Part shown: piece after piece, positions 1,418 through 35,878 of the stretch
Position numbering within the stretch: the first letter of the stretch is position 1
Layout of the letters: each line of letters opens with the position of its first letter
From: Verrucomicrobiia bacterium
GTDB taxonomy: Bacteria > Verrucomicrobiota > Verrucomicrobiia > Limisphaerales > UBA1319
Direction: 5' to 3'
DNA length: 64,000 nucleotides
Assembly: GCA_963664225.1 (NCBI GenBank)
Contig: OY760937.1
Coordinates: forward strand, 1,760,001 to 1,824,000
Notes under the pieces: generated by a model
Database searches by the model: none
Told to the model about the DNA's origin: nothing
The model's input: the letters and a program-made list of their open reading frames with translations, nothing else
Translations under genes and position numbers: made by a program

Positions 1418-1476
1418 AGAGCTGCGACGGGTGCGAGACAGGAATTGTCCGGAAGGAAGGAAGTTTTCTAAACGGA

Positions 1477-1501
1477 CCCCGCTCGTGCCTCGCTGGGCGA
1501 G
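1477..1501. repeat. REP-like palindromic repeat (second copy at 9155-9179)
   Basis: CCCCGCTCGTGCCTCGCTGGGCGAG versus CCCCGCTCGTGCCTCGCAGGGCGAG; 24/25 identical, both intergenic. Confidence 0.7.
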
Positions 1502-1743
1502 GAATAAGATTGGCGCGATTAGCGTGTTCGGGGCGCAGGGGTGGTAGTGGACGCGGCGGCGGGTTCCAGCGCCTGCGGATTGGAAATCCGCGATACGGTT
1601 GGAAACCTGCGCTACGGGTCGGCCCGGATCGGTGCGCAGAAGAGTGGCGCGATAAGCGTGTTCGGGGCGCAGGGGTGGTAGTGGAAGCGGTGGCGGGTTC
1701 CAGCGCCTGCGGATTGGAAATCCGCGATACGGCAGCAACGGTG

Positions 1744-2706
1744 TCATGGAGCAACACAGAATCTGGGATCTTTTAGGGCATGATTCATCAATACGATGAG
1801 TTTCCGCATCACTGCTGTCAGCGCCACTTTGGGCTTCTTGCCCGCCGCCCGCAGCCTCTTATAAAAGGCCTTGAGGATGGAATTGCAGCGCACCGCTGCC
1901 ACGGAGGCCATGTAGAGGGCGCGGCGCACCCCGGTCCGGCCGCCACCAATGTGACGCTGGCCTTCCCAAGGGCCGCTCTGGCGCACCCACGGGGCCAGCC
2001 CCGCCAGGGCTGCCGCCTGGCCCCGGTTGAGGGTTCCCAGTTCGGGCATCTGCGCCACTACCGTCACGGCCGTCAGCATCCCCACGCCGGGAATTTCCGC
2101 CAGGCGGGTGACTTGTTTTTGCTCGACGGCGTGGCGGGCCAGGGCGGCGGTTAATTCGGCCAGCACTGCGGCCAAACGGCTTTCCAGATGCCGTATCAGC
2201 TTGGCGTGTTCGGTGCGGACGAAGGGTGAGTCGTGGTGTTCGGCCTGATTTTTGGCGATGGTCAGGAGATCTTTGAGTTGTTCGCGCCAGGTCACCAGGG
2301 CGGTGAGCTCAGTGTGGGCTGGCGTCGGGGCGGTGGTGGCAGCGGGCTCCAGGGCCTTGCCGAAGGCGCTCAGGCTGGCAGCATCGATCGGATCGCTCTT
2401 GGCCCGCTGGCCGGTGGCGCGGGCGAAGGCACGGGTCTGGGCCGGGTTGACCACGCTGACGGGTAAACCGGCCGTGTGAAGTGCCGCCACGACGGCACGC
2501 TCATAGCCGCCAGTGGCTTCGAGGATCACGTGGGCACCGGGCACAGCACCCAGACATTGGACCAGTTGTGTGTGCCCCGCCGCATCGTTGGTCACGTCCA
2601 GGAGCCGTCCGGGAAGGTGAAGTTGGAGAGTGGCCTTGGCGACGTCCAGACCGACATGGACAGGGGCGGATTTTTCAGTCATAATATTAAAGTTGTTCGG
2701 ACTCAT
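1744..2706 (-). CDS. IS110 transposase (DEDD RuvC-like + Tnp20 domain)
   Basis: GLDVAK, LEATGGYE, KSDPIDA, IPGVG, GLAP..RQSG and VRRALYM motifs. Start placed at ATG 2706 by analogy with copy B. Confidence 0.95.
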   Translation of the reverse strand: MSPNNFNIMTEKSAPVHVGLDVAKATLQLHLPGRLLDVTNDAAGHTQLVQCLGAVPGAHVILEATGGYERAVVAALHTAGLPVSVVNPAQTRAFARATGQRAKSDPIDAASLSAFGKALEPAATTAPTPAHTELTALVTWREQLKDLLTIAKNQAEHHDSPFVRTEHAKLIRHLESRLAAVLAELTAALARHAVEQKQVTRLAEIPGVGMLTAVTVVAQMPELGTLNRGQAAALAGLAPWVRQSGPWEGQRHIGGGRTGVRRALYMASVAAVRCNSILKAFYKRLRAAGKKPKVALTAVMRKLIVLMNHALKDPRFCVAP

Positions 2707-2875
2707 TCTTGCAAATACGAGCTGGCGTTGTAACACGCCGCTCTGGTAACGGTTCGAGTTTCGGACAAAGGCGAGCGCGATTCATGCTGCCGTACGGTCT
2801 GGCTTTCACCAGACCAAGATTGGAACGAACACGCGTCCGCCGTCCCTTCCCCGCCTGCAGGCGGGGAAGGGACAC
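2707..2875 (-). ncRNA. Predicted bridge RNA of IS110 copy A
   Basis: 5' hairpin at 2842-2873. Target loop: LTG 2817-2825 and RTG 2787-2794 around the stem GGTCTGG/CCAGACC. Donor loop: LDG 2745-2753 and RDG 2708-2713. Transcript ends approximate. Confidence 0.82.
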
Positions 2876-3119
2876 CACTTCTTTCTTGTTCAACGCGAAC
2901 CAACAAACAAGTGGCAAATTCAAACATACAAGGTTGGAAACCTGCGCTACGGGTCGGCCCGGATCGGTGCGCAGAAGAGTGGCGCGATTAGCGTGTTCGG
3001 GGCGCAGGGGTGGTAGTGGAAGCGGTGGCGGGTTCCAGCGCCTGCGGATTGGAAATCCGCGATACGGGTCGGCAGAAGCCTGATCTTGCAAATGGGCCAT
3101 GATCACCTAGCTTTGGGGG

Positions 3120-3797
3120 ATGGATTTGCCTTGCCAGGTACCGATCATGACACTGCCGGACGCGACCCTCTTTCCAGGGTCGCTTCTGCCGTTGCACATT
3201 TTCGAGCCCCGTTACCGGCGCATGCTCAAGGATGCCCTGGAAACGAGCCGGGTGTTCGCCATTGCCATGCGCAAACCCGGAAGCAAACAGGAAATTCCCC
3301 TTCAGGTGGCCGGTTTGGGCATGATCCGCGTGGCGTTGAAACGGCCGGACGGCACGTCCCATGTCATTTTGCAGGGCCTCTCTCGGGTGGCGCTCATGGG
3401 CGCGGTGCGGCGCAGGCCCTACCGGATTGAATCCGCCATGCCTCTGCTGGCCAAACGGGATACCTTCCCGGATGCGCCCGCATTGACCCGCCAGTTGCGA
3501 AACCTGGTCACCGCGCGTCTGGAACAGGATGAGCCCATGACCAAATACGAACTGCTCAAGCAACTGCCTCCGGAGGCGGTGCCGCACTTCGATGCCATGG
3601 CCGCCTCTTCGCTCAAGCATTTCGTGGAACTCCTGGGCGAGGTCAAGGATCCGGGCCAGGTGGCCGATCTGGTCGGTTGCACCCTGCTGCGCAAAGCCAG
3701 CGAGCGCCAGATCATCCTGGAGACCGTGGAAATCGAGCCCCGCCTGCGCATGGTCATCCGATTTCTGAAGGAGGAAATTCATAGCGAAGGTTTATGA
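3120..3797 (+). CDS. LON peptidase substrate-binding domain protein
   Basis: LFPGSLLPLHIFEPRYRRM signature; no ATPase or protease domain. Confidence 0.88.
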   Translation: MDLPCQVPIMTLPDATLFPGSLLPLHIFEPRYRRMLKDALETSRVFAIAMRKPGSKQEIPLQVAGLGMIRVALKRPDGTSHVILQGLSRVALMGAVRRRPYRIESAMPLLAKRDTFPDAPALTRQLRNLVTARLEQDEPMTKYELLKQLPPEAVPHFDAMAASSLKHFVELLGEVKDPGQVADLVGCTLLRKASERQIILETVEIEPRLRMVIRFLKEEIHSEGL

Positions 3798-33919: not shown

Positions 33920-33963
33920 GGGGGAGGAGGGGCGGCACGCGAAGGGGGGAGGAGCAACGGTAT

Positions 33964-34905
33964 TTAATTTGAGAGTGCAAAATCTGGGTTTTTGAGGATT
34001 TGGTTCATCAGGACAATGAGTTTGCGCATGACGGCGGTGAGCGCGACTTTGGCGGGCTTGCCCGCCAATCGGAGTCGTTCGTAGAACTCCTTGAGTTGGC
34101 GATTGCAGCGCGCAGCCACCAGGGCGGCCATGTAGAGGGCACGTCTAACGGCGGCTCTTCCGCCACCGATGGAGCGGCGGCCTTGCCACTGGCCGCTTTC
34201 TCGAGGATGTGGAGCCAGTCCGGCCAAGGCGGCGGCCTGCCCCCGATTGAGCGTGCCCAACTCGGGCAGCTCAGCCAAAACCCCCAAGGCGGTAATCGCG
34301 CCCACCCCGGTGATGGCTTCGAGTTTTTTTGCGCGTTCATCCAGTTCTGTGGTTTTCTGGCGCAGCGCTTTGAGTTGGGTCTCGATATGCTCCAGATCCC
34401 GTTCCAATCGACGCAGCAGGCTCTGGGCCTGGCGGCGCAACTTGGGCAGCGTGAGGCGTTCGATCTGATGGCGCTGGCTAATAAGCAGATCAAGGATCTG
34501 AGTGCGGCGGCGAACCAGTTCGGTCAACTGCTCCTCCACCTCGGAACGCGCGGGCGTGGGTTTGGGGGCGAAGGCCTGCCCATAGGCGGAGAGGACGGCG
34601 GCATCTATACGGTCGGTTTTGGCCCGTTGTCCCTGGGCGCGGGCGAAATGCCGGACGCGGGCGGGATTGATGATGCTGACAGGAATGCTGGCATGATGGA
34701 GGGCGTCAGCCACCTCACGCTCGTAGCCGCCGGTGGCTTCACAGATGACGTGAGCGCCGGGATGCTGCGCCAGGAGTTTGACGAGCTGGCGATGACCGGC
34801 GGCGGTATTGGGCAGATGGTGGGAACGACCGGCCAGTTGGAGATCAAGACTCAGCTTGGCAATATCCAAACCAGCGTAGATAGTGGTCATAGTGTTCTGG
34901 CTCAT
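33964..34905 (-). CDS. IS110 transposase
   Basis: GLDIAK, CEATGGYE, KTDRIDA, GLAP..RESG and VRRALYM motifs; clearly homologous to copy A but diverged. Confidence 0.96.
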   Translation of the reverse strand: MSQNTMTTIYAGLDIAKLSLDLQLAGRSHHLPNTAAGHRQLVKLLAQHPGAHVICEATGGYEREVADALHHASIPVSIINPARVRHFARAQGQRAKTDRIDAAVLSAYGQAFAPKPTPARSEVEEQLTELVRRRTQILDLLISQRHQIERLTLPKLRRQAQSLLRRLERDLEHIETQLKALRQKTTELDERAKKLEAITGVGAITALGVLAELPELGTLNRGQAAALAGLAPHPRESGQWQGRRSIGGGRAAVRRALYMAALVAARCNRQLKEFYERLRLAGKPAKVALTAVMRKLIVLMNQILKNPDFALSN

Positions 34906-35072
34906 TCTTGTAAATACGAGCAGGCCTTGGTGGGCCGCTCAAGCAACGGTTCGAGTTTAGGACACAGGCACGAACGGCTCTGGCTCCTCGCGCATTTGGT
35001 TAAAAACCAATGCAAGAAGGAAACGAGCTCGTCCGCGCCACTGTCCTGCCGCCTGCAGGCGGCAGGACAGTT
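34906..35072 (-). ncRNA. Predicted bridge RNA of IS110 copy B
   Basis: 5' palindrome at 35041-35070; LTG 35015-35023; RTG 34984-34989; LDG 34942-34950 (9/9 to donor); RDG 34907-34912 (6/6). Ends approximate. Confidence 0.83.
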
Positions 35073-35238
35073 CCATCTATTCCGTCTTTTCAAACAAAAC
35101 AAGAATAGATGGAAAATCAGATACAAGGAAGGAAGGAAACCGCTAATGGGAGGGAATTGACGCTAATAGGAAGGGAATGGGGATTTGGAAAATGATATTT
35201 AGCCTGATTTACAGTTTCTCTGCGAGGCGATGGCCGAG

Positions 35239-35258: not shown

Positions 35259-35878
35259 GTGTGTCTGGCAGGTATTGGATCTATTGGGATGAAAGGAGCC
35301 CAACGGGGGCGGTGACGCCAACCGTAGCGGTAGGCCAGGTTCGATCCGCGAGGGTCGGGCGCGAAAGGGCCGAGAGCAAAGGCGCGACCGTAGGAACACG
35401 AACGGGCAGTGAGGCCGGGTGCGTGGGTTAGCTGGCGAGTAACGGCGAAACCCAAAGGTCATCCAAACGCATCAGGTAGAGCCCGGCGGCGCGCGCCGAC
35501 AGAGTCAATACCGACCCAGAGAGATCTGTCCCGTGAGAGCGGGACAGAAGTCAGCAGAGGCCATAGTAGTGATGAGGCCCGGTGAAAGCCGGGAGGAGCG
35601 AAGGGCCGAAGGAACAAACGGAGCCAACCAAGGCGTTGGACATGAGGACGAGTGATGGAATGAAGCAACAGGACGCAACAATTACGGTTACCATCCTGGC
35701 ACTGGCAAACGGCGGGCCCAACGCTGGAAGCGCCCAACCCGTCGAAGCATTCCGGGGTCACATGTCTGCACGACTGGGAAGGAAGAACTCTGAATGTTCC
35801 AACCGCCGGATGCGAGAAAACCGCACGTCCGGTGGTGTGGGAGGGTGCCGGGGCGAAATCCCTGGCACCCGACCCGAT
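35259..35878 (+). mobile_element. ORF-less class IIC group II intron (620 nt)
   Basis: 5' GTGTG; DII/DIII AGAAGTCAGCAGAGGCCATAGTA..GAAGGGCCGAA; short DV AACCGCCGGATGCG..CGCACGTCCGGTGGT with CGC triad; DVI GGGTGCCGGGG..CCCTGGCACCC; 3' end ACCCGAT. No RT ORF. Confidence 0.9.

Follow-up and report, generated by a model that had tools for sequence, protein, structure and literature searches.

What directs an IS110-family insertion sequence to its sites in the genome of a Verrucomicrobiia bacterium, and is that information carried in the element's own left end? We addressed this question for IS-A, an insertion sequence on the minus strand of the window, the 64,000-nucleotide stretch of contig OY760937.1 analyzed here. 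IS-A is an IS110-group element that very probably works as a bridge recombinase of the IS621 type, a reading that we develop below from the anatomy of the element, the site specificity of its six insertions, a conserved RNA structure and the covariation of RNA guides with flanking DNA in relatives.

Element, recombinase and predicted bridge RNA

IS-A occupies window positions 1734-2931 and measures 1,198 bp, counted with one core and one extra T and with its ends defined as the points where copies cease to be alike. The genome, searched for copies as one contig of 5.78 Mb, holds five full copies, four of them identical and one with three SNPs, as well as a sixth, truncated copy, 96% identical over the 68 nt of left end that it keeps, which follows TTCCAAC-CT. 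A CT dinucleotide stands at both junctions in 5/5 full copies, and all five interrupt their hairpins in one and the same orientation. An inverted-repeat search over 1450-3150 found no terminal inverted repeats of IS-A, only an internal hairpin. On the minus strand the sequence that flanks the element reads ...GCGCAGGTTTCCAAC-CT at the left and CT-GCCGTATCGCGGATTTCCAATCCGC... at the right, and the flanks of the window copy, with CT at 2932-2931 and 1735-1734, give TTCCAAC-CT-GCCGTA (Table 1). The preliminary description of this locus had called that 15-mer the empty target; the string is correct as read from the flanks, but because the window is without an intact copy (0 at two or fewer mismatches) the "empty target" is a reconstruction.

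Table 1. Coordinates of IS-A, its flanks and the parts of its predicted bridge RNA within the window
Feature	Position	Strand	Description
IS-A	1734..2932	minus	CT core at both junctions: C2932-T2931 left, C1735-T1734 right
Left target (LT) TTCCAAC	2933..2939	minus	loop and 3' arm of REP-like hairpin GCAGGTTTCCAACCTGC
Right target (RT) GCCGTA	1728..1733	minus	end of hairpin arm and spacer to next hairpin
Left donor (LD) ACCGTTG	1736..1742	minus	right end of IS-A
Right donor (RD) TGTATG	2925..2930	minus	left end of IS-A
Recombinase gene	1744..2682	minus	312 aa from ATG at 2682
Bridge RNA, ~172 nt (predicted)	2701..2873	minus	5' hairpin, then target-binding loop, then donor-binding loop
5' hairpin	2842..2873	minus	perfect 16+16 nt palindrome, apex GCCUGCAGGC
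Left target guide (LTG) UUCCAAUCU	2817..2825	minus	target loop; same sense as LT+CT
Cap hairpin of target loop GGUCUGG-UGAAAG-CCAGACC	2796..2815	minus	stem arms 2815-2809 / 2802-2796
Right target guide (RTG) UACGGCAG	2787..2794	minus	complementary to top strand CT+GCCGTA
Candidate target-loop handshake guide CA	2785..2786	minus	complementary to donor positions 7-6 (G, T)
Left donor guide (LDG) ACCGUUACC	2745..2753	minus	against left donor ACCGTTG+CT (1742-1734): 7/9
Right donor guide (RDG) AUUUGCAAG	2708..2716	minus	GCAAG pairs with CTTGT, one G.U

The recombinase contains the Pfam domains DEDD_Tnp_IS110 (PF01548; E 9.4e-18, 64.9 bits against a cut-off of 29) and Transposase_20 (PF02371; E 8.5e-18, 65 bits against a cut-off of 21.3); an alternative 330-aa reading from a GTG at 2736 would overlap the RNA. 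Comparison with solved structures returned the IS621 transposase as the top match (8wt6_A, E 7e-34, over residues 9-303), with the ISCro4 transposase structure at E 8.4e-33. IS-A residues D13, E55, D97, D100, S236 and G237 align with D11, E60, D102, D105, S241 and G242, which form the IS621 active site (Hiraizumi et al. 2024, PMC11208158; the PDB chain is numbered +2 relative to the published residues), and all six are invariant in 5/5 aligned relatives. The recombinase was present at E <= 1e-30 in 4/60 other close-relative genomes; because these are too few, relatives were drawn from a wider genome collection.

The predicted bridge RNA, with probable ends at 2873 and 2701, lies between the left end of IS-A and the recombinase gene and contains two internal loops. 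The minimum free energy fold of the 249-nt left end reaches -108 kcal/mol (z = -7.7; 0/200 shuffles equally stable) and begins with two leader hairpins; behind these come two stems, and each stem opens into an internal loop containing one guide pair. The apex GCCUGCAGGC of the 5' hairpin recurs among the left ends of relatives. In the target loop, the left guide agrees with LT plus core at 8/9 positions, the sole mismatch being a U opposite a bottom-strand G, and this guide, which reads in the sense of LT+CT, would pair with the bottom strand; the right guide is complementary to CT+GCCGTA at 8/8. In the donor loop, LDG positions 1-6 are exact against the left donor, and the AU of the RDG may pair with the AT that follows CTTGT, with two U skipped, if the discontiguous 9-on-7 pairing described for the IS621 RDG (Durrant et al. 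2024, PMC11208160) is applied here. The candidate target-loop handshake was placed by the description of IS621. The guide and stem strings assigned to the minus strand in the preliminary description were all present at their positions, including UGCAAG at 2713-2708, and we reproduced its pairing counts for both target guides (8/9 with a U.G wobble; 8/8 as reverse complement) and for the second loop (7/9 to the left donor; one wobble with the right donor, GCAAG pairing with CTTGT through one G.U). The IS621 layout that it proposed likewise holds for IS-A: a CT core, a target loop before the donor loop, and a left-end RNA upstream of a DEDD/Tnp recombinase.

When the left end was mononucleotide-shuffled 200,000 times, a single shuffle gave an exact RTG 8-mer together with an LTG match of at least 8/9 located 12-70 nt upstream. 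Against Rfam 15 the left end gave only sub-threshold chance matches, and no curated family there covers the IS-A RNA; elsewhere in the window, a group II intron is the only match at the gathering threshold.

By homology with IS621, we infer a path of transposition in which each loop reads one DNA partner. The first loop, through LTG UUCCAAUCU and RTG UACGGCAG, would read the two strands of the 15-bp target TTCCAA(T/C)-CT-GCCGTA, which lies in the 3' arm of the REP-like hairpin and in the spacer behind it, and the second, through LDG ACCGUUACC and RDG AUUUGCAAG, would read the joined element ends ACCGTTG-CT-TGTAT. IS-A would leave as a circle, whose junction ACCGTTG-CT-TGTAT would form the donor site; a recombinase tetramer would hold both loops while D13, E55, D97 and D100 and the putative nucleophile S236 exchange strands at CT; and the element would enter in one orientation, with CT on both sides. 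The sequence TTCCAATCTGCCGTA would then be the target to be joined with the joined element ends by recombinase and RNA.

Conservation, guide-flank covariation and transcripts

The relatives comprise 80 loci encoding related recombinases, mostly from Verrucomicrobiota assemblies, and a covariance model, R1, was built from 19 left-end segments aligned with MAFFT, using the RNAalifold stems and the outer donor stem. R1 has one match upstream of the gene and on the gene's strand in 79/80 of these loci, and the single locus without a match has only 28 nt upstream. In the window it matches IS-A at 2695-2843 (131.4 bits) and a sister element, IS-B, at 34894-35041 (147.8 bits), and nothing else. Across 70 distinct rows, in an alignment that was fitted to the R1 structure and so favours it, 94.6% of 1,737 stem cells are paired against 67.1% in shuffles, both sides have changed in 23/26 pairs, and 0/500 shuffles reach any of five measures; a slid-partner control gave 30-42% paired. 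The earlier MAFFT alignment, made before the model, has compensating changes in 13/22 pairs.

Guides were extracted from the relatives by position, the LTG as the nine residues after a conserved G and the RTG as the nine ending at an invariant AG, and with donor strings taken likewise this gave 67 distinct guide sets. Left ends of relatives were set at the nearest TTGTA, found for 67/90 distinct insertions, and right ends were located by the first 7 nt of the LDG; a rule that took the farthest TGTA as left end had produced implausible element sizes at about ten loci and was replaced. Guides and flanks vary together. Over 45 distinct loops, LTGs match their own LT at a mean of 6.53/9 positions versus 4.38 (sd 0.16) after permutation (0/2000), and over 54 distinct guides the contiguous match of the RTG to its own RT, counted from the core, is 6.48 versus 2.35 in cross pairs (0/2000), with a modal length of 7 (27/54).

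The candidate handshake positions follow patterns that fit the guides described for IS621, in which a handshake dinucleotide follows each right guide (Durrant et al. 2024, PMC11208160; Hiraizumi et al. 2024, PMC11208158). In the donor loop, the first nucleotide after CAAG pairs with LT position 7 in 24/33 cases versus 18.0 after permutation (2/2000). The first nucleotide after the target-loop AG is C in 75/76 rows, opposite donor G7, and donor position 7 is G in 63/63 right ends, 60 of which read GCT. Agreement between LDG and LD across the family (59/63) is circular, because the right ends were found with the LDG itself, and is not counted as evidence. LDG positions 8-9 are other than CU in 54/67 distinct guide sets, and an A at LDG position 7 occurs in 2/67; the IS-A donor-loop mismatch, 7/9 with this rare A, might lower activity.

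Metatranscriptome contigs from two soil studies cover only the bridge RNA, at 2701-2872 and 2701-2833. The longer spans the RNA from the foot of the 5' hairpin up to the final base pair of the donor stem, and the shorter has sequencing adapters on both sides. These RNA-library contigs are 95-99% like the window and come from close relatives in soil, not from the source genome; three of their five differences fall in or beside the LTG and one in a handshake pair. The contigs give a hint, short of proof, of a discrete RNA of the extent 2701-2872 in a close relative: such libraries can include DNA, and a contig does not mark where a transcript ends. A search for promoter-like sites on the minus strand of the integrated left end was negative. 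At the computed circle junction the hexamers are weak; the best pairs, ATGACA-16-TGAATT spanning the junction and TTGCCA-18-TTGAAC within the left end, reach 8/12, a score that does not justify calling a promoter. For IS621, integrated copies are reported to be weakly expressed (PMC13626964). DNA contig joints that skip 1,201 and 1,197 bases (run X3) were considered as an excision product or empty site and set aside: their sides are only 28-29 nt long, and they are no evidence of excision because other copies of the hairpin repeat explain them; a circle junction is, moreover, something that contigs are unable to reveal.

The targeted repeat and rival explanations

The repeat targeted by IS-A is a hairpin, GCAG-xx-TTCCA-yy-CTGC, followed by CGT; in the window the insertion splits the hairpin GCAGGTTTCCAACCTGC. 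A loose pattern finds 112 units in the genome, the eight commonest variants sum to 75, and a stricter pattern gives the same variants, whose stems differ by compensating, paired changes. As a short imperfect palindrome with many repeats and compensating stem variants, the family has the features of a REP; we call it REP-like because a search for a RAYT-type link found no family hairpin within 500 nt of the genome's nine Y1_Tnp genes (0/9). The full target is present only at units with GCCGT behind them, of which 24 are empty and five occupied (~29 usable). The commonest variant, ATTTCCAAT, accounts for 40 units and is free of insertions wherever it lacks GCCGT as its right half. It is the variant that the left guide of IS-A fits best, and IS-A cannot use it because that right half is absent there. 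Scored against the guides, intact 15-mers in the genome number 0 at a perfect match, one at one mismatch and 19 at two or fewer, while the 182 at three or fewer are near chance by our own estimate. A single intact TTCCAACCTGCCGTA is present elsewhere in the genome.

Read as LT-CT-RT, the five full copies lie at TTCCAAC-CT-GCCGTA (two), TTCCAGT-CT-GCCGTT (two) and ATCCTGT-CT-GCCGTA (one), with the consensus (A/T)TCC(A/T)(A/G)(C/T)-CT-GCCGT(A/T). These sites differ from the guide-predicted 15-mer at 1, 1, 2, 2 and 3 positions, and the guide matches the RT half at 7-9/9 in all five. Occupancy of the target variants declines with mismatch, in small numbers: TTCCAAC is occupied at two units, plus the truncated copy, and empty at one; TTCCAGT..GTT occupied at two and empty at three; ATCCTGT occupied at one and empty at eight; and TTCAAAC, TTCCAGC and ATCTTGT are empty at five, two and five units and occupied at none. 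Pairing alone may not explain site choice, because one insertion has three LT mismatches. The two TTCCAGT insertions, numbers 2 and 3, are separated by 9 kb and occupy paralogous copies of a ~129-nt repeat, so that they may or may not be independent events; the sequence to their right is 93% alike over 149 nt, and that to their left is unrelated and gave no BLAST match. The flank sets of the remaining three insertions differ.

Seen against these data, the expectation that other copies of IS-A would share related sites is borne out by all five full copies and the truncated one, and covariation across homologous left ends, to which the preliminary description had also looked, is found in stems and loops alike (0/2000 permutations for the loops). 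Its "genome-wide REP" survives as a repeated hairpin that is targeted, but one of only ~75-112 units, with ~29 usable sites and no Y1_Tnp link.

The bridge-recombinase reading competes with three others, which differ in what they make of the guides. IS-A could have been RNA-guided once and be immobile now, its guides relics and its copies the product of duplication of REP-containing repeats. We consider this improbable. The imperfect donor loop (LDG 7/9, with the rare A at position 7), the paralogous right flank that insertions 2 and 3 have in common, the absence of any perfect 15-mer target left in the genome and the lack of an identified promoter in the integrated copy would all suit an element at rest, but such an element is hard to reconcile with four copies identical over 1,198 bp and a fifth that differs at three positions, or with an intact ORF and all catalytic residues in place. 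It is also at odds with the unrelated left flanks of insertions 2 and 3 and with the differences among the other three flank sets, and a non-CU core in the LDG is usual (54/67) in relatives that appear to be multi-copy. The matches between left end and flanks could, alternatively, be coincidental, the left end being no more than an mRNA leader or regulatory region for the recombinase. The strings are indeed short, at 8-9 nt, and no Rfam 15 family matches; against this, both matches arise together in only 1/200,000 shuffles, the family-wide guide-flank covariation is reached in 0/2000 permutations, and the structure covaries too, so that a reading by coincidence is close to refuted.

A protein, or protein-RNA complex, that picks the REP-like hairpin as a DNA structure, with the RNA loops adding little, would account for the observation that all insertions lie in hairpins with compensating stems while LT carries up to three mismatches, and it has a precedent in ISPpu10, for which a target stem-loop is described as a second specificity determinant (bioRxiv 10.64898/2026.03.19.712850). 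This reading is nevertheless very unlikely. Guide-flank covariation extends to relatives whose targets are unrelated and are not hairpins; the sites of IS-B, a resident of this very genome, are pyrimidine-rich and match its own loop; the RT half is matched at 7-9/9 in all five IS-A copies; and the 40 units of the commonest variant are uninserted where the GCCGT half is missing. A combined form, in which both the guides and the DNA hairpin gate the choice of site, is a reading that we hold only tentatively and think less likely than choice without such gating: the hairpin variants that IS-A entered carry 1-3 LT mismatches, with the stem always kept and the right half matched.

Known bridge recombinases and elements of the same genome

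On the reading that we prefer, in which IS-A is a bridge recombinase, its closest described counterpart is IS621 of Escherichia coli, an IS110-group element with a bridge RNA of 177 nt (Durrant et al. 2024, PMC11208160; Hiraizumi et al. 2024, PMC11208158), compared with ~172 nt for IS-A. As in the published accounts of IS621, the left end of IS-A encodes the RNA, the target loop precedes the donor loop, left guides read like the top strand and right guides are its complement, the core is CT, a handshake dinucleotide is placed after each right guide, and targets are of the REP type; both recombinases have a DEDD plus serine active site and they align at E 7e-34. IS-A differs in its target and left donor, in an LDG that mismatches the donor core and position 7, and in its host, a Verrucomicrobiota member. 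The RTG-RT match is 8-9 nt in IS-A versus four, extendable to seven, as described for IS621. The length of this match had been singled out in the preliminary description, and it does exceed that of IS621, but it is normal for the clade (mode 7) and already published: some IS621 orthologues are described as having longer RTGs, and extension to 7 as improving specificity (Durrant et al. 2024, PMC11208160).

In ISPpu10 of Pseudomonas putida, the target is a REP, and a 5' extension of it is described as base-pairing with the left target, which gives a stem-loop (bioRxiv 10.64898/2026.03.19.712850). As far as that account describes ISPpu10, the two elements share a target whose fold is better conserved than its sequence and insertions in several copies of a single repeat. 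For ISPpu10 a role of the stem-loop was tested by mutation, whereas for IS-A it is only suggested by the hairpin variants with 1-3 LT mismatches; the IS-A repeat family is also much smaller, and its targets need a second unit or spacer that supplies GCCGT. If hairpin gating is true for IS-A, it would represent a "sequence plus structure" logic that, in the sources cited here, has so far been shown only for ISPpu10, and would extend that logic to a lineage far from Pseudomonas in which few usable sites are left.

IS-A is a well-supported further natural example of the bridge-RNA recombinases already described, and it might already be among the thousands of RNA-target pairs in the supplementary tables of Durrant et al. 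2024. It leaves the understanding of the IS110 mechanism unchanged. What it provides is a natural bridge recombinase from a poorly studied lineage for which four guides, both putative handshakes and six sites have been mapped.

The sister element IS-B is ~1,177 bp long and present in five copies, one at 33951-35128 of the window, and its recombinase is 55-56% identical to that of IS-A. Its ends are the same as those of IS-A, ACCGTTG-CT, which includes the LD 7-mer, and CT-TGTAT, and its donor loop fits this shared donor at 9/9 and 6/6, compared with 7/9 and one wobble for IS-A's own. The target loop of IS-B takes two forms. The form UUUCCUUCU/GCGAGGAG is found in three copies, of which a pair lies at ..CCTCCTT-CT-CCTGGG and one at ..CCTTC-CT-CCTCCC; the form CCAUUCCCU/GUCGGGAG is found in two copies, ~6% diverged, at ..GCTCC-CT-CCCCGC and ..GTTCC-CT-CCCTGC. 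Target loop and site vary together while the donor loop is constant. Each element keeps to its own type of site, in 6/6 IS-A and 5/5 IS-B insertions. Shared donor ends with separate target types would imply recombinase-RNA orthogonality or a preference in cis. IS-A and IS-B together amount to a natural swap of the target loop, and the pair is suited to the study of orthogonality, long right guides and tolerance of LT mismatches within a DNA hairpin.

In the IS1111 group of the IS110 family, the guide RNA lies downstream of the gene, at the right end of the element; IS-A belongs to the same recombinase family as that group, with its RNA upstream of the gene instead. The genome holds a fourth IS110-type element, IS-E, of 1,621 bp in four copies. 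R1 gave no match in the two IS-E copies searched, and IS-E may be a member of the IS1111 group.

Bridge RNA of a soil relative and a sigma-70-like site directed antisense across the bridge RNA

Contigs from RNA libraries of two soil studies (runs X19 and X20) contain a relative's bridge RNA that aligns to window 2701-2872 with 95-99% identity. Positions 4 and 6 of its left target guide are changed relative to the RNA of IS-A, the IS110-family element of the window, yielding UUCUAGUCU, and the other differences fall at the residue after the guide, the second handshake residue and one stem position. Such a pattern resembles natural retargeting, given how similar the two RNAs otherwise are. Within the start of the IS-A recombinase gene we also observed a sigma-70-like site (TGGACA-17-CATAAT, 10/12), directed antisense across the bridge RNA and the sole one in window 1600-3100 (shuffle mean 0.3), which could be a chance occurrence or an antisense regulator.

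IS-A insertion sites

IS-A is flanked by a tandem direct repeat of three units of 134-136 nt that are 76-99% alike, and its insertion point is the exact boundary of two units. The next unit junction, near window 1597, reads TTTCCAAC-CGTATCG and is missing 4 nt of the hairpin arm, so no CT-GCCGTA target exists there; this gap may be a deletion variant or a footprint. Tandem units of ~129 nt house REP-like hairpins elsewhere in the genome as well. A 68-nt left-end remnant, 96% identical to IS-A, preceded by GGGTTTCCAAC-CT and ending abruptly within the RNA's 5′ hairpin, is a dead sixth IS-A insertion.

Other IS110-type elements

The donor ends of the sister element IS-B are identical to those of IS-A, and its target loop occurs as two sub-variants, each fitting its own pyrimidine-rich insertion sites. 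An in-frame TAG occurs in one IS-B copy (genome 1738660-1739571). The window copy lies ~200 nt from group II intron RNA domains (RF02001, 84.1 bits; RF00029, 44.7 bits). A third IS110-type element of the genome, IS-E, is 1621 bp long, has a DEDD domain (107 bits) and is present in four copies. The left-end RNA model found no match in the two of these copies searched; by analogy with the IS1111 group, in which the guide RNA is located elsewhere than the left end, the guide RNA of IS-E may lie elsewhere in the element.

Coordinates of IS110-type elements and associated features
Feature	Coordinates	Strand
Repeat units flanking IS-A	window 1463-1732, 2932-3067	
Sigma-70-like site	window 2657-2685	+
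IS-B, window copy	window 33951-35128	minus
Group II intron RNA domains	window 35342-35878	+
IS-B, other copies	genome 1738417-1739593, 3172066-3173224, 771092-772268, 2701687-2702863	
IS-A remnant	genome 3572938-3573005	
~129-nt tandem units	genome 2577832-2579870	
IS-E copies	genome 968202-969822, 2964636-2966256, 3179276-3180896, 4663566-4665186
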